DNA of 64,000 bases, taken from assembly GCA_964617735.1 (NCBI GenBank), contig CAZTXT010000002.1, positions 12,536 through 76,535 of the forward strand. Direction: 5' to 3'. The stretch comes from an uncultured Candidatus Saccharibacteria bacterium. Lineage in GTDB: Bacteria > Patescibacteriota > Minisyncoccia > Phycocordibacterales > DSPV01. The stretch's first letter is position 1. Every line of letters starts with the position of its first letter. The notes below the pieces were generated by a model. It did not search any database and had not been told where the DNA came from. It saw nothing but the letters and a program-made list of their open reading frames with translations. Below are positions 12,852-43,025 of this stretch, piece after piece. The position numbers and the translations under genes are program-made.

Positions 12852-12856
12852 CATCC

Positions 12857-18059: not shown

Positions 18060-18063
18060 TCAC

Positions 18064-21476: not shown

Positions 21477-21482
21477 TCTACA

Positions 21483-24573: not shown

Positions 24574-24584
24574 ATCCCATCGAA

Positions 24585-25508: not shown

Positions 25509-25526
25509 AACGCGGCCGGCTTTATA
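25497..25526. terminator. bidirectional rho-independent terminator between convergent genes
   Basis: A 9-bp GC stem gccggccgc/gcggccggc with loop tgaaac, followed by tttata. A-rich sequence upstream gives a T-tract on the other strand. The hairpin overlaps the stop codon of the plus-strand gene. Confidence 0.65.
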
Positions 25527-25540
25527 CTAAACGCCGATGT

Positions 25541-26701: not shown

Positions 26702-26765
26702 TGCAGTAAAGAAATGTTAGCAAAAAAGAAGCGAGTATGCTATTTTAAAGCGACTTTGGAGCTAT

Positions 26766-27935
26766 ATGCAAAAGAAGATACCTCCACGGACACATAAAAA
26801 AGCAAGCCGGAGCGATCCGGCGCTTAAACGTCTGATCCCGGTTTCGGAACCGAACATCGGAGAAAAAGAAAAACGCTACCTAATCGATGCTATCGAGAGC
26901 GGTTGGGTATCATCCAACGGCCCTTACTTGGCTCGATTCGAAAGAAATTTTGCCGCTTATTGTGGACGGGCATACGGACAAGTCGTATCGAATGGGACCG
27001 TCGCACTACACCTGGCGCTTCTTGCACTGGAGATAGGCCCAGGCGATGAAGTCATTGTTCCGAATCTAAGCTTCGTGGCCTCCGCGAATGCCGTCGTGCA
27101 TGCGGGAGCGACTCCTATCTTCGTTGACATAGAACCTGATACGCTCAACATCGATGCGGCGAAAATAAAAGCGAAGATCTCACCCCGCACGAAAGCCATT
27201 ATGGTCGTGCACCTTTTGGGCCACCCAAGCGATATGGACGCGATCGAGAGTATCGCCCGGGAACACCAATTGCGTATCATAGAAGATGCCGCCGAAGCTC
27301 ACGGAGCAACCTATAAAGGCAGAATGTGCGGCTCATTCGGAGATGTCAGTTGTTTCAGCTTCTACGGAAATAAAACTATCACGATGGGCGAAGGAGGAAT
27401 CTGTCTCACCGATGATGCGGAGCTTTATAGAAAAATCAACATCCTTCGCGGTCAGGGAATGACACCGAATAAACGCTACTGGCATGAGATCGTTGGCTAC
27501 AATTATCGCCTGACCAACATTCAAGCGGCACTCGGCTCTGCCCAGCTCGAGCGGATAGGTGAGCTTTTGAAAATAAAACGAGCGAATGCCAAGCTCTATC
27601 AAAAGCTTCTTTCTGGAATAGCGGGTGTTTCCTTTCCCGTTGAAAAGCCCTACGCAAAGAGCAGCTATTGGATGGTAACGATCATGGTTAATACGAAGAA
27701 AGCTGGTATGTCGAGAGATGCGCTGGGAGAGGAGCTGGGCAAAAGAGGTATAGAAACAAGAATACTTTTCTATCCAATTTCTCATTTGCCCCCGTATAAG
27801 ATGAACGGAAAAGGACTGGACGTATCGGAGAGTATCGCGTATGAAGGACTCATGCTGCCGTCATCAACAAAGCTTTCATCAAAAGATATCGCCTATATTT
27901 GCGACCAGATCAAGGATATCCTCGCAAGAAAATGA
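26766..27935 (+). CDS. DegT/DnrJ/EryC1/StrS-family PLP-dependent nucleotide-sugar aminotransferase
   Basis: The N-terminal SNGTVALHLAL block and overall similarity to PglE/PseC/LegC-type aminotransferases. Confidence 0.85.
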   Translation: MQKKIPPRTHKKASRSDPALKRLIPVSEPNIGEKEKRYLIDAIESGWVSSNGPYLARFERNFAAYCGRAYGQVVSNGTVALHLALLALEIGPGDEVIVPNLSFVASANAVVHAGATPIFVDIEPDTLNIDAAKIKAKISPRTKAIMVVHLLGHPSDMDAIESIAREHQLRIIEDAAEAHGATYKGRMCGSFGDVSCFSFYGNKTITMGEGGICLTDDAELYRKINILRGQGMTPNKRYWHEIVGYNYRLTNIQAALGSAQLERIGELLKIKRANAKLYQKLLSGIAGVSFPVEKPYAKSSYWMVTIMVNTKKAGMSRDALGEELGKRGIETRILFYPISHLPPYKMNGKGLDVSESIAYEGLMLPSSTKLSSKDIAYICDQIKDILARK

Positions 27936-29209
27936 CCATCGGTTTTTATTTCGAGTGTCAGAAAAGATCAGGTGGGGTTTATCAATATGCCCTCAACATC
28001 CTGGCTTCGCTGCGCGAGATGCGCGAGCATCGATTCATCGTATTCAACATCTCACCCGACTTCCCTTTTGATGAGTTTCGTCTATCCAACTGGAGCATCA
28101 TCAATCTGATACCGATCGCCCAAAAGAGCGCTCCGTCCGCAAAAACCGAGACACCTCAACAAAAAGAAGTGCGCTACTATGCCTTCAAAAGGCGCCTATC
28201 GCTTCTTATTATCTCTTTTCTGCGCGTACTACATCTTTATTCTCTTGAAGCATTTTTTGCTCAGCAGAAATCAAAGATGCGCGCGCGCGCGTTTGACGGT
28301 AAAGGGATCGATCTCATGCTTTTCCACGGACCTTCTGAACTCTCGTTTCTCACCAAAATTCCTTCTATCGTCCCAGTCCATGACATCCATCACAAACTAC
28401 ATCCCGAGTCTCCGGAGCTTTCAGACATCGGACAATTTAAAAAACGTGAACTCCAAATCGAACAGATTAAAAAACATGCCTATAAAATAATCACGAACTC
28501 GCCTGTAGTTCGAAAGGACTTGATCCGTCTCTATGGGATTCCAGCAGAGCGCGTGGAATCGGTACCCTGTCCACCCCCTCTGTATATGCACGCAAAAATA
28601 GAACCCGATGCTCGCATACGGGTTCAACAGAAATATCACATCCCGGATAAATTCCTTTTTTATCCAGCGCAATTCTGGCCGCATAAAAACCACCGCGGTC
28701 TCATTGAAGCGATGAAAATACTTAAAGACGCAGGTCTTACCCCCAACCTCGTCCTTGTCGGTAGCAATCAGCCGCTGTGGGGAGAATATGAGCGAGTTCA
28801 GAAACTTTCCAGTCAGTATGGGCTTGAGGGCCAGATCCACATTCTCGGTTATGTTGAAAACGAAGAAATGCCCGTGCTCTACAGCATGGCAGAGGCTATG
28901 GTGATGCCGACCCTCTTCGGGTTTACCTATCCGGTATTCGAGGCTTGGCTTGCAGGCTGTCCGGTAATCTACTCCAACGACCGGACCTCGCGGGAGCAAG
29001 CAGGCGATGCGGCGCTTCTCGTTGATCCACACAACCCAGCGGATATCGCCGATAAGATAAAAAGAATTCTTGAGGACAAGGCACTCAGAAAAGACCTTAT
29101 TCAAAAAGGGCTCGCGAATGCCGCACGCAATTCGTCCGAGAAACTAACTGCTAAAATAAGAGAACTATTCACTACGTTTGAAAAAGAGAGGCGCGCCCGA
29201 ACACGTTAA
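27932..29209 (+). CDS. GT4-family glycosyltransferase
   Basis: C-terminal GT4 core (LVGSNQPLWGEYERV...MVMPTLFGFTYPVFEAWLAGCPVI). The start was set at ATG 27932 (ATGA overlap with the upstream stop). Confidence 0.75.
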   Translation: MTIGFYFECQKRSGGVYQYALNILASLREMREHRFIVFNISPDFPFDEFRLSNWSIINLIPIAQKSAPSAKTETPQQKEVRYYAFKRRLSLLIISFLRVLHLYSLEAFFAQQKSKMRARAFDGKGIDLMLFHGPSELSFLTKIPSIVPVHDIHHKLHPESPELSDIGQFKKRELQIEQIKKHAYKIITNSPVVRKDLIRLYGIPAERVESVPCPPPLYMHAKIEPDARIRVQQKYHIPDKFLFYPAQFWPHKNHRGLIEAMKILKDAGLTPNLVLVGSNQPLWGEYERVQKLSSQYGLEGQIHILGYVENEEMPVLYSMAEAMVMPTLFGFTYPVFEAWLAGCPVIYSNDRTSREQAGDAALLVDPHNPADIADKIKRILEDKALRKDLIQKGLANAARNSSEKLTAKIRELFTTFEKERRARTR

Positions 29210-29820
29210 TCGGAGATATCTTTTATTTCCGGATTGAGCCTGTCTAGGTATCTCACCTTGTCGGGAATATCCTTAATGACGGTCGCTCCCATGCCGATTA
29301 CAACATAATCACCGACCGTAATGTGGTCGCGGATCAAGGTACCCATTCCAACAAACGTACTCTCTCCGATGACCACCCCTCCGCCGGTCGCAACGTTAGG
29401 ATTTAAGTCTGAATGATCCCCGACCACGTTGTCATGATCCACATTGACATGGTTATTGATGAGCACGTTACTGCCGATCTTAGAATTGACGTTGATGTGA
29501 CTGAACGCCCCCACCATGACGTTTTGACCCAGCGAGACGCTATCCTCCACAAATGCTTCTGGGTGAATCGCGTTTACAAATTTCGCGCCCGATCTCTTCA
29601 GAAGCTCATAGGCCTCCCGTCGAAATTGTATGTTGCCGATAGCCACAAAAAAATGATGATCTGGTACGAACTTCTTGAACTCTTCCGTCTTACCCAGCAC
29701 GTGCGGACCCTCGATCTGCTCATCTAAAAAGCCCACGACCCGATTCTTAGGATCATGCTCTAAAATGTTCTTGATGACGAAACCGTTTTGCCCCCCACCA
29801 ACAATAATTATTTTTTTCAT
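29206..29820 (-). CDS. hexapeptide-repeat (left-handed beta-helix) sugar N-acetyltransferase (PglD/NeuD/WbpD-like)
   Basis: An N-terminal Rossmann-like KKIIIVGGGQNG is followed by imperfect hexapeptide repeats. The start was set at MKKIII (29820); the track start is 29868. Confidence 0.7.
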   Translation of the reverse strand: MKKIIIVGGGQNGFVIKNILEHDPKNRVVGFLDEQIEGPHVLGKTEEFKKFVPDHHFFVAIGNIQFRREAYELLKRSGAKFVNAIHPEAFVEDSVSLGQNVMVGAFSHINVNSKIGSNVLINNHVNVDHDNVVGDHSDLNPNVATGGGVVIGESTFVGMGTLIRDHITVGDYVVIGMGATVIKDIPDKVRYLDRLNPEIKDISD

Positions 29821-29907
29821 ATCAAGGCCAGATGAGCCTACGTTACCGATGAACGGCTCATAAATCAAGTCTCTAGTTCCATTTTACACTCCCAATTATA
29901 GCATGCT

Positions 29908-30753
29908 ATGATGACCGCTATGGCTTTTAAAAAATGCGATTGCGAACTCTGCAGATTCGAAAATCCCAAGATCGCGACCGCCGCGATCATTATTAATGAT
30001 CAAAAACTTCTCGTTGCTAAAAGAAACACCGAACCGTTCAAGGGCGCATGGGATTTTTTTGGCGGTTACGCATCGAAGGGCGAGACTCCAGAAGAAAGCC
30101 ATCGCAGAGAAATAAAGGAAGAGCTCGGGACTGACTGCGAAGTTACTTTTTTGGGCGCCTTTCCCGGCACTGCCAGCTACAAAGAGTTCGAATTTCCTGT
30201 GGTCAATTTCGCGTATCTGACAGAATTAAAAGGCACGATCAAACTCGACACGAAGGAAAACTCGCACGCTGCGTGGATTCCGATCGCGGATATGAAAGAT
30301 ATCGCTTTTGATTCAAACCGAAAAATACTCGATTTTTTGAAGAAGAAATGGACGTTCGATCTAGAGACGTTAAGAAAACTGGTACACCAGCTTGACCCTT
30401 CCGCTGTGGTAAGTGAGCAATCACTCTATAAAGCGATGCTCAACGGTTTTATCAGCACCGTTTACGATGGAGGTAGGCTGGTTGGCATGGGCTGGATCTT
30501 CCCGCGTCAGACGCTTTTACGAAAACAAGCGGTCGTTGAGGACATGATCGTCGACGATAGCGAGCGTGGCAAAGGCCTCGGGAAAAAGATCCTTCTGGAT
30601 CTGCTTGCATGGGCGAAGAGCGAAGGCGTTGAGGTGGTCGAACTGACCACCAATCCAAAACGAGTCGCCGCGAACTCTCTCTACCAAAAAGTTGGTTTCA
30701 AACTCCACGTTACCAACCACTACCTATTGGACTTGGAAAAGTACACCTCGTAA
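29908..30753 (+). CDS. NUDIX hydrolase - GNAT N-acetyltransferase fusion protein
   Basis: The N-terminal Nudix box is GGYASKGETPEESHRREIKEELG. The C-terminal GNAT core is QAVVEDMIVDDSERGKGLGKKILLDLLAWAK... Confidence 0.65.
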   Translation: MMTAMAFKKCDCELCRFENPKIATAAIIINDQKLLVAKRNTEPFKGAWDFFGGYASKGETPEESHRREIKEELGTDCEVTFLGAFPGTASYKEFEFPVVNFAYLTELKGTIKLDTKENSHAAWIPIADMKDIAFDSNRKILDFLKKKWTFDLETLRKLVHQLDPSAVVSEQSLYKAMLNGFISTVYDGGRLVGMGWIFPRQTLLRKQAVVEDMIVDDSERGKGLGKKILLDLLAWAKSEGVEVVELTTNPKRVAANSLYQKVGFKLHVTNHYLLDLEKYTS

Positions 30754-30804: not shown

Positions 30805-31356
30805 TCAGTAAGGGAAGATCGTGTCGTAGAGATCAAGAAGCGCTTTGTGAATACCCGTGTCTGCTAAGAGCTTCTCCCGATTGTACTCCTGGAGACCCCA
30901 ACCAGGAACGTATCCGGTTTTTTCGAGATTTGCTGCCGTATGTTCACGTTCTTGTGGAGTCAGCTCCACAGCAAAAACTTGAACAACGCCATGGCAACCA
31001 ACGTTTTGGGGTTCTTGCTCGCGATCCTTCCAAAGGTACTCGTTCTCTTTCACATAGGTGAAACGCTCCGCCCCAAGAAGCAAGGAAGTCTCTCTAAAGA
31101 AGACCCTCTCGATTGCTTGAATGGGGGTCTGACCAGCAGCTCGCCGTCCGCCGATCACCCAAACTCCCTGCATCGGCTTCTGTGAACGTTTTATAAGCCA
31201 AAACGTCTTACGTAAACTATCAATAACGACAGCGTCCACGCAGACGATGATGAAGCTACGTATCGCTTCCTCGTATGCTGTGGCAGTCATAAAGTACCGC
31301 TGCATACTGTGTTCAGGCGTTTCCCGATAAAGGGTCGGGAGGGTTGCTTCTTTCAC
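30805..31356 (-). CDS. NUDIX-fold hydrolase-like protein (possible GDP-sugar hydrolase analog)
   Basis: It has a degenerate Nudix-like segment, GGRRAAGQTPIQAIERVFFRETSLLLG. The family call is weak. Confidence 0.3.
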   Translation of the reverse strand: MKEATLPTLYRETPEHSMQRYFMTATAYEEAIRSFIIVCVDAVVIDSLRKTFWLIKRSQKPMQGVWVIGGRRAAGQTPIQAIERVFFRETSLLLGAERFTYVKENEYLWKDREQEPQNVGCHGVVQVFAVELTPQEREHTAANLEKTGYVPGWGLQEYNREKLLADTGIHKALLDLYDTIFPY

Positions 31357-31660
31357 AAGATCCTTTCGGTTTGTAGCTACGTGAAAGGGTTTTTAAACCC
31401 TAACAACATAACGAAGTTTAGTGTTTATCTCATCTGGTTATAACACATCTATTAGAAAATGCAATATCTGTACTCTTACTAGTTTCTTAAGTGCTTGCTC
31501 TACCCTATCAGTAAGTACTTGGGGCGAAAGAATGCGGATATATACCAACGTATGCAATTTTCTTAACCGTAGCCATTACATCGATGTGTAACTCGAAAAT
31601 GTCAAAACCTCGAGTACTCCCAACATTTTTATAGTGAGCATCGAGCCGATAATTTCAGGC

Positions 31661-32623
31661 TCATTGAGAACTAGCGAAAAAGGAGCGATGGAGATGCTCG
31701 GCGAGGAATTGTCTTCCCTGCGCATTAAGATGCTCATCAGGAAATGGGCCATGGATAAAATTACTCGAGTCTAGATCAAAAGCCCAATTGAAGCATGTAA
31801 CTCCTTTTTCCGAGAGAACATGACACACGGTCTCTGCGTTCTTTCTGGTTTGAGGCAGGAAGTCTTTACCGACATATCGCTCTCCATTTTGATAATCGAT
31901 CGGCGTCAAATATGAGTACACTGCAATCCCCGCGGCCTGCGCGGTTTCTATCGCGTCCTCAAGTGAGCGGAGCTTACGATGATCTTCGCCCAGGTCGTAC
32001 ATATAATCGTAGATGTAGACGTCTCTGATATTTTCAGTGGTAGTAGCGGACTTCAGTTTATTCTCAAAATCCCTTACCAACCCAACCGTCGTAGTTCCAT
32101 AATACACCGGTGTCTGCAGAAATTTCTCTTCAGGAACCTCATTAAGGTTAAGGGCTCCCAGAATCGCAAGCGGACGATAAAAATCGGTCACTATCTTCGG
32201 CCGAGCTGAAAAGAAGAACTTGAGCTTTTCCGCCTGATACTCGGGTTTTAGATCCCAGCTCGGAGAAAATGAACGCAGATTGATCGGAATGATCACCGCC
32301 TGGGGGCGAACCGCCTCCCGGCTAATGTAGTGAAGATAGATTGCATACATATCAGTGTTATCGGACCCACGCGAAAAGTCGGCGATAGAATATGCCGGGT
32401 CGATTTTCGCGATCTTTTCCGCAACAGTTGATTTGTCCGCTTCGTGGGTTTGTACGGTTTTGGGCACGCTGTCCCCAAAGTAAATGACGCGCTGATGCTC
32501 GCGCAAGAATCTATCGAGCAACGCCACTTCGGGTACTGGGCCGATAATGAATCGAGAGATGAGAATCTGGGAAATAAGGATTATGATCAGAAATCCAAGA
32601 GATTTGTACAAGATCGGTTTCAT
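31661..32623 (-). CDS. membrane-anchored SGNH/DltD-AlgX-like protein (extracytoplasmic partner of the MBOAT)
   Basis: A single N-terminal TM anchor (ILYKSLGFLIIILISQILISRF) is followed by a GDS block (VIYFGDSVP). Its position immediately downstream of the MBOAT resembles DltB-DltD and AlgI-AlgJ/X pairs. The start was set at MKPIL (32623); the track start is 32656. Confidence 0.55.
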   Translation of the reverse strand: MKPILYKSLGFLIIILISQILISRFIIGPVPEVALLDRFLREHQRVIYFGDSVPKTVQTHEADKSTVAEKIAKIDPAYSIADFSRGSDNTDMYAIYLHYISREAVRPQAVIIPINLRSFSPSWDLKPEYQAEKLKFFFSARPKIVTDFYRPLAILGALNLNEVPEEKFLQTPVYYGTTTVGLVRDFENKLKSATTTENIRDVYIYDYMYDLGEDHRKLRSLEDAIETAQAAGIAVYSYLTPIDYQNGERYVGKDFLPQTRKNAETVCHVLSEKGVTCFNWAFDLDSSNFIHGPFPDEHLNAQGRQFLAEHLHRSFFASSQ

Positions 32624-32624
32624 A

Positions 32625-34130
32625 TCAGAATTGGAAATAAATAAAACGGATCTCATGGGTTACACCGAGATTGAGGACCGCAAGGACGCTCAATGCATAG
32701 AGAAGATATCGGATCCATCCAGCGCTCCCATGGATCCGACGCGCCAGATCAAAACGGCTATCCGCTATCTCAACCACAACGAACGCTGCCACGATCGCTA
32801 TATACAAAAAGAGATGAAGTTTTCCTGTCGGAGCGAACGCACTGCTCACAATCTCTCGCAGAGGGTTAAGCGAAAACTCCATAAGGGAAGTCGCCACGGC
32901 AGCGATCGAACTTCCAACGCTTACGATGGCGCTCCTCAAGATAAACAAGGAATCCGAAAATGAGGCGGCTCTGAAGAAAATAAAGCCAGAACAAACCAGC
33001 GCAAAGGTTATTATGACGCTTATCCCGTGGGAAAGTCGGGGAAATCGGGATAATTTGAGAAGTTCAGCGGACCTCTTTCGCCACCGCTCGGTAACCTGTC
33101 CGAGAACTATATAGACGCCATGGATCCCACCAAACGCGACGTAGGTCCACGCCGCACCGTGCCAGAGACCATTGAGCAAAAAGGTGATCAGTGCTGCTCC
33201 CGCGATCCGTATTTGCAGATTCCCTTTTTTCCAGAGCGCGAGCGGATAATAAACATAGTCGCGCAGCCAGTTCGAAAGCGAAATATGCCAACGCCTCCAA
33301 AATTCCGCGATGGAGGGTGCGAGGAACGGCCGGTCAAAATTCACCGTAAGGTCATATCCTAAAACACGCGCCGAGCCGACCGCGATATCGGAATATCCGG
33401 AAAAATCGCCGTAGACCTGAAATGCGAAGAAGACAGTCGCGGCAATGAACGCAAGTCCCGAATACTCGTGGGGGTGGGAGAAAACTGGAGTCGCATAGCT
33501 TGCCAGGTTGTCAGCGATAACGACCTTTTTGAAAAAACCCCACAACATCCGCTCTAACCCGCGCCGAACGGAATCTGGATCGAACGCATGGCTTGCTTTA
33601 AGTTGAGGCAGTAGGTGGGCAGGACGTTCGATGGGGCCAGCCACGAGCTGGGGAAAGAAAAGGACGTAGAGAGCATAGGTCAGGATATTCTTCTCTGCAC
33701 GGTACCGCCCCCAATACACCTCGATCACATAGCTTAAACTTTGAAAGACGTGGAATGAGAGGCCGAGCGGAAGGGCAACCCCGAGAATGACGAGAGGATA
33801 GTTCCAATGTAGAAACTGCGCGATGGTCGCAACGTTTTCGTTGAAAAAGTTGAAGTATTTGAAGAAGAAAAGCGTGCCGATATTGGCGGCGATACTTAAT
33901 AGCAAGAGGATCGTGCGCTTCCTACCCTGGAACTGCTCCATCGCCTGCGCCAAGAAGAAGTCGGTGACAATGAGAAAGATGAGAATAAGGATATACTTCG
34001 GGATAAAAGCCATGTAAAAGTAGCAGCTTGCCGCAAGCATCATCAAGGGACGGACCTTGGGTGCCATCGCATAATACGCAATGACCACTACAGGGAAAAA
34101 GATGAAAAATGAGAGCGAGTTGAATCCCAT
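32625..34130 (-). CDS. MBOAT-family membrane-bound O-acyltransferase (DltB/AlgI/PatA-like)
   Basis: 501 aa and polytopic, with the conserved MBOAT His region WRRWHISLSNWLRDYVYYPL. Confidence 0.85.
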   Translation of the reverse strand: MGFNSLSFFIFFPVVVIAYYAMAPKVRPLMMLAASCYFYMAFIPKYILILIFLIVTDFFLAQAMEQFQGRKRTILLLLSIAANIGTLFFFKYFNFFNENVATIAQFLHWNYPLVILGVALPLGLSFHVFQSLSYVIEVYWGRYRAEKNILTYALYVLFFPQLVAGPIERPAHLLPQLKASHAFDPDSVRRGLERMLWGFFKKVVIADNLASYATPVFSHPHEYSGLAFIAATVFFAFQVYGDFSGYSDIAVGSARVLGYDLTVNFDRPFLAPSIAEFWRRWHISLSNWLRDYVYYPLALWKKGNLQIRIAGAALITFLLNGLWHGAAWTYVAFGGIHGVYIVLGQVTERWRKRSAELLKLSRFPRLSHGISVIITFALVCSGFIFFRAASFSDSLFILRSAIVSVGSSIAAVATSLMEFSLNPLREIVSSAFAPTGKLHLFLYIAIVAAFVVVEIADSRFDLARRIHGSAGWIRYLLYALSVLAVLNLGVTHEIRFIYFQF

Positions 34131-34135
34131 GATAG

Positions 34136-34894
34136 CTACAATTCCTCGGTTTCAGGTGCCACCAGCATGGTTAAATCCTTTTCTTCGCATCGATCCGAAC
34201 AAAGCGAAGATACTACAACCGCCACATCGGATGCTTCAGCGAGTTTACCGGTCGGACTGCCCCTCCTGACCATCTCTAAGAAGGCTGCCGGTGTATCTTT
34301 ATTGAGACCGCCCGGGAGCACCCCCGGTGCGACCGAATAGACCCGAACGGAAAACGGTGCTAGTTCCTCGCGTAGTGCTACAAGCATCCCCTGCTGTGCG
34401 AATTTCATCGGACTATAAGCTCCACGAGCTTTCGTGTTGACTGGAGTAGAAACCGACGCTGTTGTGATCCCAATTAGTACCCCTCTTCCGGCACGCTTGA
34501 GAGCGTCGGCGCAGTGGGAAAGGAAATTAAAACTGCCGAAGACATTGGTCTCGAACTGTTCGCGGAGATCCTCAATCGACGTACGGTAGAGCGGCGCGCG
34601 CTTCGGCAGGGTACCCGCCGCATGAATACATGCGTAAGGAACCTCCCTATAGTCTTGTTCGATACCATCGAGCACACGTGACAGTGCAGAAGAATCTCTA
34701 AGATCGCATGAATACGATCGATGGCCCGATCCGGTAAGCCCCGCAAGAAACTTTGTAACCTCTGGTGCCGAAGATGTGTGGTAGAGCGCTGCGATGAAAA
34801 ACCCGTCAGCAGCGAGTTTGCGGCAAATGGCCGAACCCACATATCCCATTGAGCCTGACACGACCGCGATGTGTTTTTTTGTGCTTTTTGTCAT
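34136..34894 (-). CDS. SDR-family oxidoreductase (FabG-like ketoreductase)
   Basis: Gly-rich dinucleotide motif VVSGSMGYVGSAI and catalytic YSPMK (YxxxK). Confidence 0.8.
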   Translation of the reverse strand: MTKSTKKHIAVVSGSMGYVGSAICRKLAADGFFIAALYHTSSAPEVTKFLAGLTGSGHRSYSCDLRDSSALSRVLDGIEQDYREVPYACIHAAGTLPKRAPLYRTSIEDLREQFETNVFGSFNFLSHCADALKRAGRGVLIGITTASVSTPVNTKARGAYSPMKFAQQGMLVALREELAPFSVRVYSVAPGVLPGGLNKDTPAAFLEMVRRGSPTGKLAEASDVAVVVSSLCSDRCEEKDLTMLVAPETEEL

Positions 34895-34897
34895 CGA

Positions 34898-35323
34898 TCA
34901 ATCTCTGACCTGAACCGTGGCGACCCCACAGACAACCTCTTCTCTGCCCTTGCGGACCGAGATATCCACATCGATGACGCGCGTTGCGGGACTCTTCGAC
35001 TGTACAGTCCCGATGACCTCAACGGTATCCCCCATATACACCGGCTTCTTGAAGCTCAAGGTCTGACGGAGATATAAACAGCTTTCTCCCGGCAAATGCA
35101 TGCCGACCATCCGCGAGCAGAGCGCTCCGATCAGCATCCCATGCACCAGTCTCCGGCCAAAACTCGTCTTTTGCGCGTACGCATCATCCATATGGAGTGG
35201 ATTCTCATCGCCCGAGAGACGCGCGAAGTCCAAAACATCTTGAGCGTTGATAGTACGCTCAAAACGGGCGGTGTCCCCCACTGAGATATCCGAAAAATGC
35301 CGATGTGCAGGGATTTTATTCAT
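34898..35323 (-). CDS. MaoC-like (R)-specific enoyl hydratase/dehydratase (hotdog fold)
   Basis: DENPLHMDDAYAQKTSFGRRLVHGML is the MaoC dehydratase signature. Confidence 0.75.
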   Translation of the reverse strand: MNKIPAHRHFSDISVGDTARFERTINAQDVLDFARLSGDENPLHMDDAYAQKTSFGRRLVHGMLIGALCSRMVGMHLPGESCLYLRQTLSFKKPVYMGDTVEVIGTVQSKSPATRVIDVDISVRKGREEVVCGVATVQVRD

Positions 35324-35550
35324 AAGTTCTTCCCACGCTTAAGAACGACGCGGCGTATATCGCCGACAGTTTTTGAGCTGACGACTTCATCGATAGTAAA
35401 AGAGAAACCGAAACGTTTTTCCAGTTCCGAGATGAAAAATAAGTAGTTCATAGAATCCCATTCCGGGATATCTTTAGGGGAAAGCGAGTCAGAGATGCTC
35501 TGGAGCGGAATCTTAAAAACCCTATGCAGTATGGTATCAAAATCATGCAT
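35320..35550 (-). CDS. acyl carrier protein (phosphopantetheine attachment)
   Basis: 76 aa. EWDSMNYLFFISELEKRFGF contains a DSL-type Ser attachment motif (DSM). Confidence 0.75.
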   Translation of the reverse strand: MHDFDTILHRVFKIPLQSISDSLSPKDIPEWDSMNYLFFISELEKRFGFSFTIDEVVSSKTVGDIRRVVLKRGKNL

Positions 35551-36592
35551 GGCTCAGTTTGACCCAACGAGGGGTTTTAAAAGACTCCGACAGAGAGCCC
35601 TCTCCTCCCCCAAAGACTCTCCGAACAAAATCTCGCGCGGGCCCATTCTTTTCCGACTCGACAAAATCGATGGTCGTCTTCAGGGCACCGCTCTCACTGG
35701 CACGGCGTACAATAAAGGACACAAAAGCATCTTCCACGCCCCGGCCAAATACTCGACAGCTCATCAGAAGGTATTCTATCGCCCACACCGACGGGTTGGT
35801 GCGTACTAGCGCAAACGCGATAACGCCGTAATCCCCGAACCGATCGCTTAACGTAGCATGAAAAACCCGATAGTCGCCGCTTCGGATATATTTTCGTATC
35901 TCGGGTTCAGAGAGTGGTTGCTTGTGGATGTTAAACTGGTTCGTTTTTTCAGTCAGTTGCGAGAGACGTGCAAGATGCAGGTCGCTGTCTTCATAGACTG
36001 TTAGTTCCAGATGTAAACTCTTCAAGAAATCTTCTTTCGTCGGAGAACGACTCTCCTCGGCTCTCCGCAATCTCTCGGTAACATAATAATTTCCGCGCAT
36101 GGTATCTTCATCGGTAACCGCGTCCATTGCAAAATACGGCAAGGCGTTGAGAAAACGAACATAGTCGGAAGGACTCTCCGGCATCTCCGGCGTCTCCACT
36201 TCAGGTACCAGCGAGCGCGCCAGCGCGCGATTGGTCGGATCATCATCCAAAAATACCATCGAGTCGAGACCGATATTCAATTCTTGCGCCAACTCGCGCA
36301 GATTCTGCGCTTTGTCATTCCAATTGATACGCGCTGCCGCGAAGTGATGCTCTTTGAGCACCATATTAGGATGAGCACGTATCACCTGCCACGCATCGTC
36401 AGGATTATTTCTGCTATTGATAGCCAACAAGACACCGCTCTGTTGCCGATCGAGAAGCATTTGTTGAAATGCCAGAAAATAATTCCCGGGCGGATCGAGC
36501 GAAAGCGCGATACCCTCTATACCATCCTCTCCCGCGACGCCTCCCCAGAGGGTATTGTCGAGATCGACTACGATGCATTTTTTGTTATTCAT
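35543..36592 (-). CDS. FkbH-like protein (HAD-superfamily IIIC phosphatase/acyl-ACP-forming loader)
   Basis: HAD motif I VVDLDNTLWGGV, the FkbH-like middle region and a C-terminal GNAT-like tail. The start was chosen at MNNKKCIVVD (36592); the track start is 36646. Confidence 0.7.
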   Translation of the reverse strand: MNNKKCIVVDLDNTLWGGVAGEDGIEGIALSLDPPGNYFLAFQQMLLDRQQSGVLLAINSRNNPDDAWQVIRAHPNMVLKEHHFAAARINWNDKAQNLRELAQELNIGLDSMVFLDDDPTNRALARSLVPEVETPEMPESPSDYVRFLNALPYFAMDAVTDEDTMRGNYYVTERLRRAEESRSPTKEDFLKSLHLELTVYEDSDLHLARLSQLTEKTNQFNIHKQPLSEPEIRKYIRSGDYRVFHATLSDRFGDYGVIAFALVRTNPSVWAIEYLLMSCRVFGRGVEDAFVSFIVRRASESGALKTTIDFVESEKNGPARDFVRRVFGGGEGSLSESFKTPRWVKLSHA

Positions 36593-36935
36593 ATAACTGA
36601 ACCGCAATGGCAACTGCCATGGTCTTTTCATGGCTAATCGAGACAAGTATGGAGCGTTGGTATCGATTGCGGATCCACACTCCCGGTCTTCCGTCCTTAC
36701 CGCGCCGTATCTCGATGCTCCTGATCAAGCGCAGTGGGTCTGTGAAAGTCTTACGTACGGCTTCCTTTGCCGCAAAAGTCCCTGCCAAATGCACCCGAGC
36801 ATCTTTGAAAGAAAAACAATGCGCGCGCTCGATTGCGCTGAAATTGTCAAGCAAAAAGCGACTTTTTCGATCCCGTTCGAACGGCGCAAAACGCTTAACC
36901 GCCACGATATCGATACCGACGCCGCGAACACCCAT
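36585..36935 (-). CDS. acpS: holo-[acyl-carrier-protein] synthase (4'-phosphopantetheinyl transferase, AcpS type)
   Basis: MGVRGVGIDIVAVKRF... (the GIDIV motif) and a length of about 117 aa from the internal start at 36935. Confidence 0.7.
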   Translation of the reverse strand: MGVRGVGIDIVAVKRFAPFERDRKSRFLLDNFSAIERAHCFSFKDARVHLAGTFAAKEAVRKTFTDPLRLIRSIEIRRGKDGRPGVWIRNRYQRSILVSISHEKTMAVAIAVQLYE

Positions 36936-36984
36936 ATGCGCAGTATTGTACCGAAAAAACGGATTTTTACAACGATGCGACCTC

Positions 36985-38040
36985 CTAGAGAGAACGGAGA
37001 ACCGCGGCAACTCTCTCCCCTAAAACCGCCGGGAGTAGAAGTTCTTGATAAGTCTTGTGCGCATTGCGGGATAGACGCGCACGAGCTTCAGGATCGTTTT
37101 TCAAGGAAACGATAGCATGGGCAAGATCCTCGGCATCACAAGCCCTGACGAACGAACAATTTAAACCGTCTGACAAAAGCTCGCGGTTGCTCTTTGAATC
37201 ACGGGTGATAAACGGCATGCCCAGAGCAAGCGCCTCGATCGTCTTATGCTGAATGGTGCGATCGAGCCGTTCATTGTCGCTGAACTGACCCAAGAGCACC
37301 TGCGCCGAAAGCATGGTCCGGCGTAGTTCCGGTGCGTCAAGGAATACACCGATGAGCTTAACTTCAGAGAGTCCGTAACGGCTGATCAGCGCCTTGATCT
37401 TCTCTTGCTGCGCTCCCCAGCCAATGAGAATAAACGTGATCGGTTCATTGCGTAACAGTCGCGCCGCCTCGATCACATATTCAGCGCCGGTCGCTGGCAG
37501 GAACATGCCGCGGAATAAAACGGTAAATCCTGTATTCTTCTTAACCAATGGGTCGGGGTGGAACACCGATTCATCGGCACCGGTGAACACAACGTGCAAT
37601 TTGCGCAGCGGAACAAAAAAGAACTTCGCTATAAAACGTTTTTGTGCCTCGCTTTCAACCAGTATGGCGTCTGAGACTGCAAACGCCAGAAAGTCAGAAA
37701 GCCAGAAAAAGAAAGCATGCAATGAAAACCGCCGATGCATCTCCCGGTCAAGGATATACGCCTCGTACGATGAGGCCAGCGCGTTGTAAATGATCTTTTT
37801 GCGCTGCGCCAGATAGGCGACGATCGCACAGCGTGGACTTAAATATCCTATCCAGATCAGATCGACATCGCGAAGCGCGCGAAGCGCGCGGAAGAGTCCA
37901 GTGTACTTCTTAAAACCTGATCTCTGATCGATGAGCTCCAGGAATCGGATGCCCCGCCGCTTGAGTTCTTCGATATACACCTTATCCCGCGGGGCTGTTG
38001 GTGGATAGATGCCGACAAAAGCTATGCTGCGTACGTGCAT
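36985..38040 (-). CDS. GT4-family glycosyltransferase
   Basis: GT-B fold with a C-terminal E..E-type motif region (HKTIEALALGMPFITRDSKSNRE). Confidence 0.75.
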   Translation of the reverse strand: MHVRSIAFVGIYPPTAPRDKVYIEELKRRGIRFLELIDQRSGFKKYTGLFRALRALRDVDLIWIGYLSPRCAIVAYLAQRKKIIYNALASSYEAYILDREMHRRFSLHAFFFWLSDFLAFAVSDAILVESEAQKRFIAKFFFVPLRKLHVVFTGADESVFHPDPLVKKNTGFTVLFRGMFLPATGAEYVIEAARLLRNEPITFILIGWGAQQEKIKALISRYGLSEVKLIGVFLDAPELRRTMLSAQVLLGQFSDNERLDRTIQHKTIEALALGMPFITRDSKSNRELLSDGLNCSFVRACDAEDLAHAIVSLKNDPEARARLSRNAHKTYQELLLPAVLGERVAAVLRSL

Positions 38041-38041
38041 A

Positions 38042-39505
38042 TTAGGAAGTCTTCAACGTAAAGATATCATGACCATCTTTACGTTCAAGGAATTGGTACT
38101 TACGTGAGAGTATCTCGGCGCCCTCCGCTTCAAACCGATCCGCGGACGGAGAAACGAGTATGTCGGGCAGTGGGTTCTCAAGCAGCGGGTTCACACCGAT
38201 ATCCGGCATACCGGTCAAAGAGAACACCACCGACCGATGTGGGTTTCTCATTTGGGAATACAATCCGACGTCCGACAATATCCCAATGGTTTTCTCGGGG
38301 TATAGCCGATCGAGATAGCGCGCGATCTCGATGGACTCTCTCGATGTATAGATGTCCGCCGAAACAAAAAGCTGGACCAGCTGCACCACGATCAAAAGAC
38401 CCGTCAGCGTAAGCGTTCCGGTCGCGAGCTTGAATTTCCTGAAAAAAGCCGCGCGACGCTGTAAGGTGTGCACCAGAGTTAGGAGCGCATGCGGCACAAT
38501 CAACAGGATGAGCAATTCGGCAATGAGGAGATAGCGGAGCCAGCCTGGACTGCGCAGATAATAGACGAATGCGAACACATTGTAGACAATACAGAAGTCA
38601 TAGAGCAACGCTGTTTCTTTTCTCCGAACAAAGAAACGTGCCGCGATTATAAGCGTCAGCAGAATGGAAAAATAGATAAGCGTCGTCGAAGCGAAAAAAT
38701 GGGCTAAATTTGAGTGTATGTTCGCCCCGATATCCGAACTGTAGGGGTTCCGGTAAAAATTACCGATGCGCGACCAGAAAGCGCTTGAAAAAGGATTGCC
38801 ATTCACCACCGAGAGCCAGAGCAGAGCCGACGGAAGAATCCCGAGCGCAAGCGCGAGCGTTCGGCCGAGAAAACGCCGCGGCTCACGCATCAATACGATG
38901 AGAAGCGCCGGAAGTGCGAGCAAGAACACCGAAGGTTTCGCGGCAATAGAGAATCCCAGCATGATGCCTGCAAGCACCGGAGATTTGCGTTCGAAAAGAA
39001 GATAGAGAGCAAGAGAAAATAACGCGAATCCCGGTATCTCCCCGACTACGGTACGACCATTGGCATAAAAAGACGCGAAGCTCGCGATGAGGGCGACCGA
39101 CAAGAGCGCAAGCGGCGAGTCGAACGATCTGCGTGCAAACATATATGCCGCTACAAGCGCGCAGAGCATCCAGACAAGCATGTATACCCTTGCCAGCGAG
39201 AAATTAAAACCGAATACGCTAAAGAGTAAAGAGAGCGGAGTGGTGACTGGATACCCGGTGGACTGGATGGTCTCGGGATGATCGGTAAACTTCCCGGGCG
39301 CGTATTCAAAATCGAGTATGTGGTTCTTCCCAAAACTCTTCGCAAGTTCGATGCTCACCGCCTCATCGGTCGAAAGCCGAGGTTTGTCGGTTAACGTCGA
39401 AACGGAAAACACTAACACGAAAATGATGATCGCAGCTGCAGCCGCACACTCAAGGCGGCGTCGTCTTTGCAATGAACCGGTACTGATCGATCCTACGTTT
39501 TCCAT
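38042..39505 (-). CDS. GT-C fold polytopic membrane glycosyltransferase (ArnT/PMT GT39/GT83-like)
   Basis: 487 aa with more than 10 predicted TM segments. It is adjacent to a polyprenyl-phosphate sugar synthase. Confidence 0.55.
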   Translation of the reverse strand: MENVGSISTGSLQRRRRLECAAAAAIIIFVLVFSVSTLTDKPRLSTDEAVSIELAKSFGKNHILDFEYAPGKFTDHPETIQSTGYPVTTPLSLLFSVFGFNFSLARVYMLVWMLCALVAAYMFARRSFDSPLALLSVALIASFASFYANGRTVVGEIPGFALFSLALYLLFERKSPVLAGIMLGFSIAAKPSVFLLALPALLIVLMREPRRFLGRTLALALGILPSALLWLSVVNGNPFSSAFWSRIGNFYRNPYSSDIGANIHSNLAHFFASTTLIYFSILLTLIIAARFFVRRKETALLYDFCIVYNVFAFVYYLRSPGWLRYLLIAELLILLIVPHALLTLVHTLQRRAAFFRKFKLATGTLTLTGLLIVVQLVQLFVSADIYTSRESIEIARYLDRLYPEKTIGILSDVGLYSQMRNPHRSVVFSLTGMPDIGVNPLLENPLPDILVSPSADRFEAEGAEILSRKYQFLERKDGHDIFTLKTS

Positions 39506-40242
39506 AATCGTTTCGCGACCCGGCGGTATAAAAATTTAAATGATTCCCAGACCGTCCAAAGGCCGTATTCGATGCTGCGTTTGAGATTTATCGACGATGC
39601 TTCCTTGAAGTACCGTACCGGAACCGGGATATCACCGATCGAGAAACCCTTATCGATGATACCGAAGAGCATCTGGGTATCGAAGATGAAATCGTCCGAA
39701 AACCCTTTGAAGTCGACGGACTCAAGCACCGCTCTACTATATGCGCGCATGCCCGTATGCCATTCGGAAAGATTGCGCCCACTGACAAAATTCTCCCAGA
39801 GGGTCAAGACGCGATTCGCGAAATATTTATAGAGCGGCATACCGCCTTTGAGGGCTTCGCGACGGCTTCTGATGCGACTCCCGAGCATCACATCGAAATG
39901 TCCATCTCGTATGAACTCGACGAAATACCGGACCAACTTCGGATCGTACTGATAATCAGGGTGGAGCATTACCACGATATCGGCGCCGCGTGAGAGCGCA
40001 AGGGAATAACAGGTCTTTTGATTGCCGCCGTAACCCAGATTTTTCTTATGCCGATGTACCGTAAAAGGTTTCGGAAGTGTACGCTTGATCTCTTGGGCAA
40101 CATCCACCGTTGCGTCGTCGCTCCGATCGTCAACCAGAATGAATTCGCTGACAGAATCCATCGGAACATCCGCGATCGTTTTTCCTAAAGTCGCGGCAGC
40201 GTTATAGGCAGGCAGAACTATGATAACGTTGGGTTTAAGCAT
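39493..40242 (-). CDS. GT2 polyprenyl-phosphate sugar synthase (GtrB/DPM1/ArnC-like)
   Basis: VIIVLPAYNAAATL...EFILVDDRSDDATVDVAQEI. The start was set at MLKPNV (40242); the track start is 40323. Confidence 0.75.
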   Translation of the reverse strand: MLKPNVIIVLPAYNAAATLGKTIADVPMDSVSEFILVDDRSDDATVDVAQEIKRTLPKPFTVHRHKKNLGYGGNQKTCYSLALSRGADIVVMLHPDYQYDPKLVRYFVEFIRDGHFDVMLGSRIRSRREALKGGMPLYKYFANRVLTLWENFVSGRNLSEWHTGMRAYSRAVLESVDFKGFSDDFIFDTQMLFGIIDKGFSIGDIPVPVRYFKEASSINLKRSIEYGLWTVWESFKFLYRRVAKRLWKT

Positions 40243-40438
40243 CAAAAAACACTCTACCGTAAAACACGACCTTTTTCCATGTCGCCTGCGAGATGAATGA
40301 AGAGCAAAAAAATCCCACCGCAAGGATACCGCGGTGGGACTCTCGGCCGTCAGTCAATCGACCAAGTCTGAATGTCGAGCATTGCACCCGACACATCGCA
40401 GTGTATCGCTCGGTAAAGAATTGTCAATTGCACGAATT

Positions 40439-41245
40439 TTACCGGTGCCGCTTAGCCAGCAAAGCATGCACGAGCAGATTTCGGCACAGATCCCAGTGAT
40501 ACACGTGCCGCTCCCACTCAAGCGCCCACGGCATGCGCGTACCAGAACAGAAAATGCTATTGCGGACATAACGGAAGATGTAGAGCGCGGAGATCTTAGC
40601 GTTCTCGGCACATACGCCGATCCATTCGATAAACGAGATCGTGGTGCGGCGCGTGATCTCAAGATCAATATAATGTTTCCACTTCTCCCGCCAGATCATA
40701 GGGTCTGAACTGACGGGGACCAACATGAATTGCTTGGTTTTTTGCACAAGTGCATGAGGCTTGATCTGTATACGCTCATGTATCGGCTTTATAAAAGCCA
40801 CGACCGTACTTTTATGGAAGAAACGCATCTGCCATGTCGGATAGGTAGCCGCACAGGAGATCACTTTCCCTTTTATGGTGTAGAGGCGGTTCACCCAATA
40901 CGCCGCAGGTTTATTCAGAGAAACGATAGAGCGGATCTCGGAGATAAGCTGTGGCGTCATCAACTCATCCGAATCAAGAAAGAAAAACCAATCCTGTGTC
41001 GAGGCCGCAAGCGTCTGGTTGCGCACTCCCGCAAAATCGCTGATGCGGCCGGAGGAATCCTGAAAACGCCTCTCTTGCGCGAGAACCCGTGCGCCAGCCT
41101 TCCTCGCGATCTCGACCGTATCATCGGTACTCCCGCCATCGGCAATGATGATCTCTGCAAAGTCCTGCGCCGACGCAAGCGCCGCCGGCAACACTTCAGC
41201 CGAATTGCGCGTCAGTATGGAGAGTGTGCAGGGGATCTTAGGCAT
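40439..41245 (-). CDS. GT2-family glycosyltransferase
   Basis: LSILTRNSAEVLPAALASAQDFAEIIIADGGSTDDT (GT-A fold). The start was set at MPKIP (41245); the track start is 41380. Confidence 0.7.
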   Translation of the reverse strand: MPKIPCTLSILTRNSAEVLPAALASAQDFAEIIIADGGSTDDTVEIARKAGARVLAQERRFQDSSGRISDFAGVRNQTLAASTQDWFFFLDSDELMTPQLISEIRSIVSLNKPAAYWVNRLYTIKGKVISCAATYPTWQMRFFHKSTVVAFIKPIHERIQIKPHALVQKTKQFMLVPVSSDPMIWREKWKHYIDLEITRRTTISFIEWIGVCAENAKISALYIFRYVRNSIFCSGTRMPWALEWERHVYHWDLCRNLLVHALLAKRHR

Positions 41246-42302
41246 GAGCGTGGCGACTATCGTGGCTTTCGGTGAGCACCTTGTACAATTTATCAGAGAG
41301 CTCGGCGAGACTATGGTGCGATACAGAGAGCGTACGCATGTCGCTCCGCGCCTGCTGTTTCTCTTCGCTCGAAAGCGCAAGGAGGGACTCTAGTTTCTGG
41401 GAAAGTGCCTGTATATCATTTTCGGGGAACACGAATCGCTCATCCACAAGTTCACTGAAATCCTTGCTCGATGCAAGCACCATGCACTCGCATGCGGCGG
41501 CCTCGAAGAGCGTTTTGTCGTACATGCCGGAAGGAGAGAGATTCACGAATACTTCGTGTGCGCTGTAGACCCGCGGACCTTCCGTATAGGGTAATCCGGC
41601 AGGAAATTGGACCCTATCGCGCAGGCGAAGCTCATCAGCGCGGCGCTTGAGCATCTCGAAATAATCGGCATCGCGCTCATGGGGAGCGCCATAGAAATCG
41701 GCGGAGAACGCGACGTTGCGTGCATGCAATCGTCCGAGTGCTTCGATCAGAAGCTCCGGACGCTTCGACGGAGCGATACGCGCATAGAATAACACCGAGC
41801 GCGCAACGCGCGCGACCGTGGGGAGGGGTTTGTAAAATTCTACATCGATGCCGACCGGCATGAGTATCGTCTTACGATACCGTGCAGTGTATGAGAATTT
41901 CGAGGTGCAGAAGACATTCGTGCAAAAAAGTGCGGCGATTTTGGTCAGCACCGAACCCGCGTAATGATTGCGCCAGAGGTAAATTTTCTTACGGATGAGC
42001 TTCCAGAAAAGTCCTCCCAGAAGGACGTACTCTTGATTCATGTGCACGAGAACCGCGTCGTAGAGATGTTGTTTCGAAAAGACGGCGCGGTAGAAATTCC
42101 AAAGGTATTTGAGCCTCGATTTTCCTTCTTCTTTGCCTAGCGATACCACCGAGACATTGGCGGGCACTCGCACCTCTCCGCGTTCAAGGCAGATCACCAC
42201 TATCGATTCGAAATTCTGTGCGAATTCCGATACCCAGCGGTTCATGAACCCAAGTACGCTGTCACGAGCGTCCATTTTCTGCGTGATGATCAGAAGCCGC
42301 AT
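41238..42302 (-). CDS. GT4-like glycosyltransferase
   Basis: GT-B-like architecture with a C-terminal FPENDIQALSQKL region. The assignment is moderate. Confidence 0.6.
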   Translation of the reverse strand: MRLLIITQKMDARDSVLGFMNRWVSEFAQNFESIVVICLERGEVRVPANVSVVSLGKEEGKSRLKYLWNFYRAVFSKQHLYDAVLVHMNQEYVLLGGLFWKLIRKKIYLWRNHYAGSVLTKIAALFCTNVFCTSKFSYTARYRKTILMPVGIDVEFYKPLPTVARVARSVLFYARIAPSKRPELLIEALGRLHARNVAFSADFYGAPHERDADYFEMLKRRADELRLRDRVQFPAGLPYTEGPRVYSAHEVFVNLSPSGMYDKTLFEAAACECMVLASSKDFSELVDERFVFPENDIQALSQKLESLLALSSEEKQQARSDMRTLSVSHHSLAELSDKLYKVLTESHDSRHAHA

Positions 42303-42305
42303 GAA

Positions 42306-43025
42306 TTATGAGAAGATATTAAAACGAACGATATGCCAGAATGCCGCGATGCCATCCCTCCAGCCGATCTTTTTCCCTTGTTTGTAAGTGCGGCCATGAT
42401 AGGAGATCCCGACTTCATACACGCGATAGGATTTGATCCGCGCGGTGATCTCGGGTTCAATGCCGAACCGGGTCGAGACGAGCTTTTCCTTGATGGCATC
42501 GACCACCATCCGACTGAACATCTTATAGCCCGTCTCCATATCGGTGAGATTGAGGTTCGTGAACATATTTGAAACCGTCGTCAATAGACGATTGCCGAAA
42601 TAATGCCAGAAATAAAGGACTCGATGCGGCGCGGCGCTGATGAATCGGGATCCGAAAACCACATCTGCAGTTCCCTCAAGGATCGGTGAGAGCATAGCGG
42701 ACCAGTCCCGAGGGTCGTATTCCAGATCGGCATCTTGGATCACTACGACATCACCCGTGGCGAGCTTGAGACCGTCCCTCACTGAAGTACCCTTCCCTTG
42801 ATTCTCCACGTGTCGCATGCCGACGACACGCTGCATCCACCCCGAGATGATCGCGGGAGTCGCATCGTTCGATGCGTCGTCGACGACAATGACCTCCCGA
42901 CCGAAACCGTCCGGTAGCGGTGTGGAAAAGACCCGCTGCAAGAGCCGATCTAAGGTCTCGGCTTCGTTGTAAACGGGGATAACGACGGAGAGAGTGCGGC
43001 TCCGACTGCGCGTGGTTTTCTCCAT
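42306..43025 (-). CDS. GT2 polyprenyl-phosphate sugar synthase (GtrB/DPM1-like)
   Basis: LSVVIPVYNEAETL...VIVVDDASNDAT...VVIQDADLEYDP is the classic Dpm1/GtrB pattern. Confidence 0.75.
   Translation of the reverse strand: MEKTTRSRSRTLSVVIPVYNEAETLDRLLQRVFSTPLPDGFGREVIVVDDASNDATPAIISGWMQRVVGMRHVENQGKGTSVRDGLKLATGDVVVIQDADLEYDPRDWSAMLSPILEGTADVVFGSRFISAAPHRVLYFWHYFGNRLLTTVSNMFTNLNLTDMETGYKMFSRMVVDAIKEKLVSTRFGIEPEITARIKSYRVYEVGISYHGRTYKQGKKIGWRDGIAAFWHIVRFNIFS

Follow-up and report, generated by a model that had tools for sequence, protein, structure and literature searches.

We analysed a 64,000-nucleotide stretch of contig CAZTXT010000002.1 from an uncultured Candidatus Saccharibacteria bacterium (assembly GCA_964617735.1; hereafter the window), in which seven co-directional genes are packed together on the minus strand at positions 31661-36935. 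Read in the direction of transcription, they encode a holo-acyl carrier protein (ACP) synthase (AcpS), an FkbH-like loader, a stand-alone ACP, a MaoC-type dehydratase, a short-chain dehydrogenase/ketoreductase (SDR), a membrane-bound O-acyltransferase (MBOAT), as well as a membrane-anchored protein of the SGNH class that resembles DltD (Table 1). A first-pass annotation of this DNA had named the same seven genes, and all seven open reading frames (ORFs) are present, each with support from profile hidden Markov models or from fold comparison. The cassette is real, it is conserved in other genomes, and it is apparently undescribed.

The genes of the block are tightly spaced, with neighbouring ORFs either overlapping or sitting no more than 5 nt apart, and a gap of 49 nt separates acpS from the glycosyltransferase gene upstream of it. 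Two of the proteins are probably shorter than the 367 aa and 331 aa given previously. The fkbH gene likely starts at an ATG at 36592, which yields a 349-aa product as in its homologues and in public gene calls, and not at the TTG that yields 367 aa; the SGNH gene likely starts at 32623, giving 320 aa as on public contigs, with the 331-aa form arising from an upstream ATG. A scan of positions 31200-38200 revealed promoter-like sites at chance level (6 found versus 6.1 expected) and no terminator on the minus strand after the last gene of the block.

Table 1. Features of the seven-gene block and of its surroundings in the window.
Feature	Positions	Strand	Support
AcpS, holo-ACP synthase (group I phosphopantetheinyl transferase), 116 aa	36585-36935	-	PF01648, TIGR00556
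FkbH-like loader, 349 aa, HAD-IIIC phosphatase plus GNAT-fold domain	35543-36592	-	TIGR01686
Stand-alone acyl carrier protein, 76 aa, Ser33 in WDSMN	35320-35550	-	PF00550
MaoC-type (R)-hydratase/dehydratase, 141 aa, GDENPLH	34898-35323	-	PF01575
Short-chain dehydrogenase/ketoreductase, 252 aa, Y160-x3-K	34136-34894	-	PF13561, PF00106
MBOAT, 501 aa, PatA/AlgI-type by sequence, two extra C-terminal transmembrane helices	32625-34130	-	PF03062
FIYFQF, C-terminal hexapeptide of the MBOAT (putative FxYxxF acyl-shuttle motif)	32628-32645	-	sequence read directly
Membrane-anchored SGNH/DltD-like putative transferase, 320 aa, N-terminal transmembrane helix	31661-32623	-	fold, motifs
Glycosyltransferase array (context)	36985-48151	-	Pfam
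Lamin-tail-domain protein and TrwB/TraG-like type IV coupling ATPase	48189-50757	-	
Second large glycan locus	10967-29209	+	
NeuB fused to a xylose-isomerase-like TIM barrel, 641 aa	16134-18059		
PglD-like hexapeptide acetyltransferase	29206-29868	-	
NUDIX-GNAT fusion	29908-30753	+	
Second NUDIX protein	30805-31356	-	
Partial 16S rRNA match, 631 bits	62551-63410	-	
Features listed with the partial 16S rRNA	61486-61560 and 61752-62246	-	

The first five genes form the carrier-protein half of the cassette. In profile searches AcpS is matched by PF01648 (E 8e-10) and by TIGR00556 (58.7 bits, cutoff 45.35) and falls below the cutoffs of the equivalog-level AcpS models; an acpS homologue also lies directly upstream of fkbH in five related loci (L010, L090, L091, L092 and L173). 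The FkbH protein scores 286.9 bits with TIGR01686 (cutoff 146.65), its residues 22-344 covering profile positions 3-317 of 323, and 72 bits with the HAD-IIIC model TIGR01681. Its HAD motif DLDNT (Asp10, codon 36563-36565) and an S-C279-R motif (Cys279, codon 35756-35758) are invariant in 21 sequences, and its C-terminal domain adopts a GNAT fold in structure comparison. With a full FkbH domain, a GNAT-like C-terminal domain and an invariant cysteine, which we take to be the glyceryl-accepting residue of characterised FkbH enzymes, this is, in line with the first-pass annotation, an FkbH-type protein and not a plain HAD phosphatase. Its closest relatives, 60-72% identical, form a highly conserved group annotated as Patescibacteria, Sungbacteria and Jorgensenbacteria, which makes a Patescibacteria genome the almost certain source of the window. 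Conversion of 1,3-bisphosphoglycerate to glyceryl-ACP is an established function of FkbH-like enzymes acting with stand-alone ACPs (PMC7489565).

No AMP-binding domain of the kind found in the adenylating enzyme DltA was detected by Pfam or NCBIfam in any of the seven proteins, and the earlier view that FkbH stands in the place of DltA is borne out to this extent. The ACP scores 21.8 bits with PF00550, just above the cutoff of 20.8, and belongs with the generic ACPs, not with the DltC equivalogs. It does possess the expected attachment site for phosphopantetheine, Ser33 (codon 35452-35454), within a WDS motif that at least 90% of 32 homologues share, and an ACP gene adjoins fkbH in 105-109 of about 160 FkbH loci. 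The MaoC protein is matched by PF01575 at 78.4 bits, and its hydratase motif is intact, with GD.N.LH kept in 17 homologues. Given that motif, and a match to 4HBT that is no more than weak (E 6e-4), a thioesterase role for this protein was considered and rejected. The SDR is matched by PF13561 (91 bits), PF00106 (81 bits) and the KR domain (32 bits), and contains YxxxK.

The MBOAT (PF03062, 101.9 bits) has DltB as its closest solved structure (E 4e-29), and its WHG motif aligns with the catalytic histidine of DltB, making His324 (codon 33159-33161) the predicted catalytic residue. The ACP, MBOAT and SGNH genes had been likened to the DltC/DltB/DltD trio, a comparison that holds for the carrier protein and for the DltD-like fold; the MBOAT does not fit it. 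Its score with the DltB equivalog model TIGR04091 is 184.2 bits, below the cutoff of 375, and it is therefore not a DltB orthologue. The protein continues for about 110 residues beyond the end of DltB, with two more hydrophobic helices, and ends in FIYFQF (residues 496-501; Tyr498, codon 32637-32639); FIYF[QK]F terminates 14 related MBOATs. Close homologues are automatically annotated as 'AlgI', and the MBOAT partners of the SGNH family as a whole as 'AlgI' or 'DltB'.

The significance of this C-terminus lies in the relay from MBOAT to SGNH partner through an acyl-tyrosine shuttle, which is established for PatA/PatB and for DltB/X/D (PMC12148441). In PatA the tyrosine of FxYxxF acetylates itself and afterwards hands the group to PatB, its SGNH partner, and in the Dlt system the motif is carried by a separate microprotein, DltX (PMC12148441). 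No separate small DltX-like gene is seen within the block. Judged by its sequence, the MBOAT is a PatA/AlgI-type protein with a fused DltX-like shuttle motif.

The last protein of the block yields nothing significant in Pfam, NCBIfam or PDB sequence searches. Fold comparison shows that it has an SGNH fold and that its closest match is DltD, in agreement with the first-pass assignment. Ser52 (codon 32468-32470; Ser63 in the numbering of the 331-aa form), Asn115 and His298 (codon 31730-31732) are its candidate active-site residues. Across the family, again in 331-aa numbering, G61-D62-S63 directly follows the N-terminal membrane helix, and N126 and E308-H309 lie further on; the Gly and Asn are invariant, and the Asp, the Ser and the E-H pair are each conserved at 90% or more. 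These residues match blocks I (Ser), III (Asn) and V (His), and the Asp of the triad is not identifiable from sequence. The family is large, with 52 word-indexed matches and 1886 cluster representatives in an exhaustive search, and has no Pfam model; the Pfam DltD model PF04914 gives sub-threshold matches only, from few members. In the loci examined the SGNH partner is found directly downstream of an MBOAT, with one exception, L040, which is described below. A second SGNH subtype of 365-384 aa occurs in L091, L066 and L165 and is homologous to the first (hhalign probability 96%). Three members of 675-832 aa (P0353, P0398 and P0422) carry a secretory-lipase or alpha-beta-hydrolase domain as a C-terminal fusion, and these fused proteins have sub-threshold matches to Pfam DltD (E about 5e-4).

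The order AcpS-FkbH-ACP-MaoC-SDR-MBOAT-SGNH, on a single strand, is found again in no fewer than five further contigs of Patescibacteria: a Patescibacteria bin (L010), a Jorgensenbacteria contig (L090, the same contig as L094), a Sungbacteria contig whose SGNH protein is of the second subtype (L091), and L092 and L173. Co-occurrence of FkbH and MBOAT in other genomes was one of the checks that the first-pass annotation had proposed. L165, with an FkbH that is only 44% identical, keeps the run FkbH-ACP-MaoC-SDR-MBOAT-SGNH. With independent genomes showing one and the same order of seven genes, chance is far from sufficient to explain the arrangement, and because the flanks of the block in L092 contain no glycosyltransferases, we regard the seven genes themselves as the conserved unit. 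Comparison of the top 120 FkbH hits with the top 120 MBOAT hits gave 21 matches by identical longest-contig size, which serves as a proxy for residence on the same contig.

Linkage to an MBOAT goes with the presence of MaoC. Two collections together supplied 163 FkbH loci, 48 with MaoC and 115 without; an MBOAT is present within 8 kb at 16 of the former and 4 of the latter, and a separate clustering of ±4.5 kb neighbourhoods gives 9/37 versus 5/123 (Fisher p 7e-4); the FkbH loci are phylogenetically non-independent and these counts are indicative only. In a neighbour-joining tree the cassette-linked MBOATs fall into two clades of their own, apart from the unlinked MBOATs. The MBOAT-SGNH pair is the sole outlet that the Patescibacteria block retains: comparison of L010, L090, L091 and L092 shows no other acyltransferase that accompanies the block throughout. 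The PglD-like transferase of the window was considered as a conserved outlet for the acyl-ACP and rejected, as it has no counterpart beside the cassette in those same four loci.

A second linked group is found in marine Thaumarchaeota (Nitrosopelagicus and TARA-type contigs), in which FkbH-ACP-MaoC-AcpS accompanies an MBOAT. In the archaeal linked loci (L029, L099, L102, L110, L112, L117 and L120) the MBOAT ends in FIYFQF and lies within a few kb. The marine archaeal MBOATs form their own clade, and their loci often add a hexapeptide transferase and a deacetylase.

We propose that the block is a self-contained seven-gene operon that would build a three-carbon (C3) acyl thioester on its dedicated ACP and export it as an ester onto an envelope polymer, a reading drawn from gene content and order to which we assign a probability of roughly 0.58. 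It looks like a hybrid, in which a Dlt-style carrier-protein donor would feed a PatA-style MBOAT-SGNH relay. In such a pathway AcpS would convert the 76-aa apo-ACP to holo-ACP at Ser33, and FkbH would use its HAD domain to strip the 3-phosphate from glycolytic 1,3-bisphosphoglycerate and transfer the glyceryl group to the ACP by way of Cys279. MaoC would then catalyse dehydration across C2-C3 to give an enol-pyruvoyl group that tautomerises to pyruvoyl-ACP, and the SDR would reduce the 2-keto group to yield lactyl-ACP. This route from glyceryl through pyruvoyl to lactyl, the outline of which had been raised as speculation in the first-pass annotation, is put forward here as a proposal. It has a parallel in the loading modules of the FR901464 and bryostatin polyketide pathways, where FkbH together with dehydratase and ketoreductase activities turns glyceryl-ACP into lactyl-ACP. 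On the membrane side, the MBOAT would use His324 to shift the acyl group from its thioester link with phosphopantetheine onto Tyr498, in the FIYFQF of the same protein, at the outer face, and the DltD-like SGNH protein would take it on Ser52 before forming an ester on a hydroxyl of a surface glycopolymer. The gene order is the same as the order of the proposed pathway.

The analysis establishes gene content, motifs, folds and conserved synteny. We infer each of the chemical steps given above, most of all the transfer from ACP to MBOAT, which acyl group is carried and what accepts it, and the argument for the hand-off from ACP to MBOAT is one of synteny. The acyl group could be destined for a general envelope polymer, since the block in L092 has no glycosyltransferase neighbours. 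A lactyl group is the 2-hydroxy analogue of alanyl, and the modification would thus be an uncharged counterpart of D-alanylation. The most specific form of the proposal, in which Patescibacteria, together with the marine Thaumarchaeota that have the related cassette, place a lactate ester on an envelope polymer through an ACP-fed fused-shuttle MBOAT, with the acyl group drawn by FkbH from 1,3-bisphosphoglycerate, is tentative, and we hold it at rather less than even odds.

Several observations weigh against this proposed operon, and many of them would suit an arrangement that we consider unlikely, in which two independent functions are simply neighbours. The MBOAT-SGNH pair would then be an acetyl-CoA-dependent O-acetyltransferase akin to PatA/PatB or AlgI/AlgJ, and the FkbH module would feed a different cytoplasmic transferase, for example one that attaches the C3 group to the nitrogen of an amino or nonulosonic sugar within the same glycan. 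The MBOAT is of the PatA type with a fused FxYxxF, a class thought to use acyl-CoA; non-Dlt MBOAT/SGNH pathways are concluded to employ acyl-CoA donors and no carrier protein, and PatA, the only fused-shuttle MBOAT tested so far, uses acetyl-CoA (PMC12148441). Moreover, each half is found apart from the other. MBOAT-SGNH pairs 39-49% identical to that of the window stand alone, lacking any FkbH or ACP within 4-10 kb, in L003, L004, L005 (an archaeon), L007, L009 and L174 (Omnitrophota), and linked and unlinked MBOATs can be told apart cleanly at just one alignment column (Leu60 versus Ala/Cys), which is too little to interpret as a signature of donor specificity. The FkbH-ACP-MaoC(-SDR) module also occurs with no MBOAT: in L012, where it adjoins NeuB and PseB-like (nonulosonic-acid-type) genes; in L013, where MaoC is present and the SDR is not; and in L040, where positions 9018-13634 hold AcpS, a 577-aa FkbH, ACP, MaoC and SDR followed directly by an SGNH protein of the second subtype, with no MBOAT detectable and a next gene resembling a Wzx-type flippase. 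In other phyla FkbH-ACP adjoins hexapeptide-repeat (LbH) or other transferases, and the window itself also encodes NeuB, DegT and a PglD-like transferase. What such independence would leave unaccounted for is the contiguity of the seven genes, in fixed order and with overlapping or near-touching frames, across divergent Patescibacteria, and the retention of the block in L092 with no other glycan genes nearby. Nor is a second transferase conserved with the block to receive the acyl group, and the cassette-linked MBOATs lie in clades separate from those of their unlinked relatives.

The relay from ACP to MBOAT could also operate with an acyl group other than lactyl, such as glyceryl, pyruvoyl, hydroxypyruvoyl or one derived from a different acyl-phosphate, with MaoC and the SDR acting in another order or on another intermediate. 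To our knowledge no FkbH has been characterised outside polyketide pathways, and the substrate here is assumed. The SDR matches generic families only, with no equivalog-level match in NCBIfam, and neither the marine archaeal versions of the cassette nor L013 include an SDR beside MaoC. Furthermore, known FkbH pathways oxidise glyceryl-ACP and do not dehydrate it (PMC7489565). We nevertheless judge a non-lactyl relay to be improbable: the MaoC motif is intact, and glyceryl-ACP is a 3-hydroxyacyl thioester, the normal type of substrate for this class. MaoC and SDR also tend to occur together, an SDR being present in 12 of 37 FkbH loci with MaoC versus 10 of 123 without, and their order is that of dehydratase followed by reductase.

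Since the FkbH module occurs without an MBOAT and beside other transferases, we conclude from these gene neighbourhoods that FkbH-ACP is a modular acyl-donor unit with MBOAT-SGNH as one outlet among several.

Pairs of FkbH and ACP occur widely across glycan loci from Acidobacteriota, Bacteroidales, Gemmatimonadota, Thaumarchaeota, DPANN and Asgard archaea (L010-L172), and several sets of neighbours recur. A 180-aa hexapeptide transferase together with a polysaccharide deacetylase is seen at 21 loci, a 376-aa protein of no assigned function at 32, a VOC-fold protein at 40 (never with MaoC), KSIII at 10 and NeuB at 7. Most of these FkbH proteins are about 580 aa long and have an N-terminal extension, like BF1531.

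Around the cassette, the window is rich in genes for glycan synthesis. The glycosyltransferase array upstream of acpS spans about 11 kb and not the 16 kb reported initially; it encodes GT4, GT-C (PMT_2, two copies), GT2 (three copies), GtrA and further GT4 proteins, including a double GT4, and it is not conserved with the cassette in L092. Directly upstream of the array, and co-directional with it, are genes for the lamin-tail-domain protein and the TrwB/TraG-like coupling ATPase. The other large glycan locus is read from the opposite strand and includes a Wzm/Wzt ABC transporter, GDP-mannose dehydratase-type enzymes, GT10, GT11 and NodZ-like (fucosyl-type) transferases, FkbM-type and other methyltransferases, a polysaccharide deacetylase and DegT, in addition to the NeuB fusion. 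The trio of PglD-like, NUDIX-GNAT and NUDIX genes sits between the two glycan loci, and is also found after the SGNH gene on a public fragment (L002).

Near the right end of the window, the 16S rRNA match covers only model positions from about 700 to 1533, with the first ~700 skipped, and no 16S is recognised in positions 63411-64000. The 3' end of the 16S lies unusually far from tRNA-Ile, across a gap of about 990 nt in which there is a 164-aa ORF. This could be an rRNA insertion of the candidate phyla radiation (CPR) type, or a truncated or misassembled gene.

Acylation by MBOAT-SGNH pairs is presently divided into two types, Dlt, with a carrier-bound donor and a separate DltX, and PatA/AlgI, with a fused shuttle and a donor thought to be acyl-CoA. 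If the ACP-fed operon proposed here is correct, the cassette would join the two, and would give the non-Dlt MBOAT-SGNH class its first member that depends on a carrier protein. It would also represent a third mode of acyl activation, in which a glycolytic acyl-phosphate is captured through FkbH, otherwise known from polyketide pathways, and ACP and AcpS might have in it their main or sole use in organisms thought to be without fatty-acid synthesis, whose genomes otherwise seem to have no call for them. Acylation of the envelope by MBOAT-SGNH pairs is itself already known; what appears to be undescribed is the combination of an FkbH/ACP module with a fused-shuttle MBOAT-SGNH pair, and our literature searches turned up no link between FkbH or a carrier protein and non-Dlt MBOAT systems, and no account of MBOATs in Patescibacteria. 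The Patescibacteria are a huge and poorly understood radiation in which the cell surface mediates an episymbiotic life, and the cassette predicts a new surface modification in them, namely a lactyl, glyceryl or pyruvoyl ester. For annotation, the SGNH partners constitute a family of about 1,900 cluster representatives for which a Pfam model is lacking.

Comparison with characterised systems places the cassette between several of them. In the Dlt system of Gram-positive bacteria (DltA, DltC, DltB, DltX and DltD), as is predicted here, the acyl group is held as a phosphopantetheine thioester on a small carrier, and is passed on by an MBOAT with a catalytic histidine, an FxYxxF acyl-tyrosine shuttle and a transferase of the DltD fold, DltB being the closest solved MBOAT. 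Unlike Dlt, the cassette has no DltA-type adenylating enzyme, its predicted loader being FkbH acting on an acyl-phosphate from glycolysis. Its shuttle motif is fused to the MBOAT instead of residing on a DltX microprotein, its MBOAT is below the DltB equivalog cutoff, and its SGNH protein is without a Pfam match. The cassette also adds two tailoring enzymes and a dedicated AcpS, and its acyl group, predicted to be lactyl, would introduce no positive charge.

The carrier-protein half recalls the FkbH/FkbJ glyceryl-ACP pathways for methoxymalonyl-ACP and tetronates, in which an FkbH-domain enzyme likewise stands beside a stand-alone ACP. In contrast to those pathways, the block contains no polyketide synthase, ketosynthase or FabH-like enzyme, has MBOAT-SGNH as its sole outlet, employs a MaoC-type dehydratase and a free-standing SDR, and belongs to a Patescibacterium with a reduced genome and not to an actinomycete. 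BF1531 of Bacteroides fragilis (PDB 3slr) and the other FkbH proteins of glycan-locus FkbH-ACP modules are mostly about 580 aa with an extra N-terminal domain, and have other transferases, VOC-fold proteins or KSIII as neighbours, whereas the cassette has MaoC and an MBOAT. The membrane half recalls PatA/PatB, AlgI/AlgJ/AlgX and WssH/WssI, in which an MBOAT of ~500 aa has extra C-terminal helices ending in FxYxxF and is adjacent to an SGNH transferase with a single transmembrane anchor; PatA of N. gonorrhoeae ends in FIYANF (PMC12148441), and the MBOAT described here in FIYFQF. Those systems transfer acetyl groups from acetyl-CoA with no carrier protein, whereas the pair in the cassette lies inside a conserved putative operon with ACP, AcpS, FkbH, a dehydratase and a reductase.

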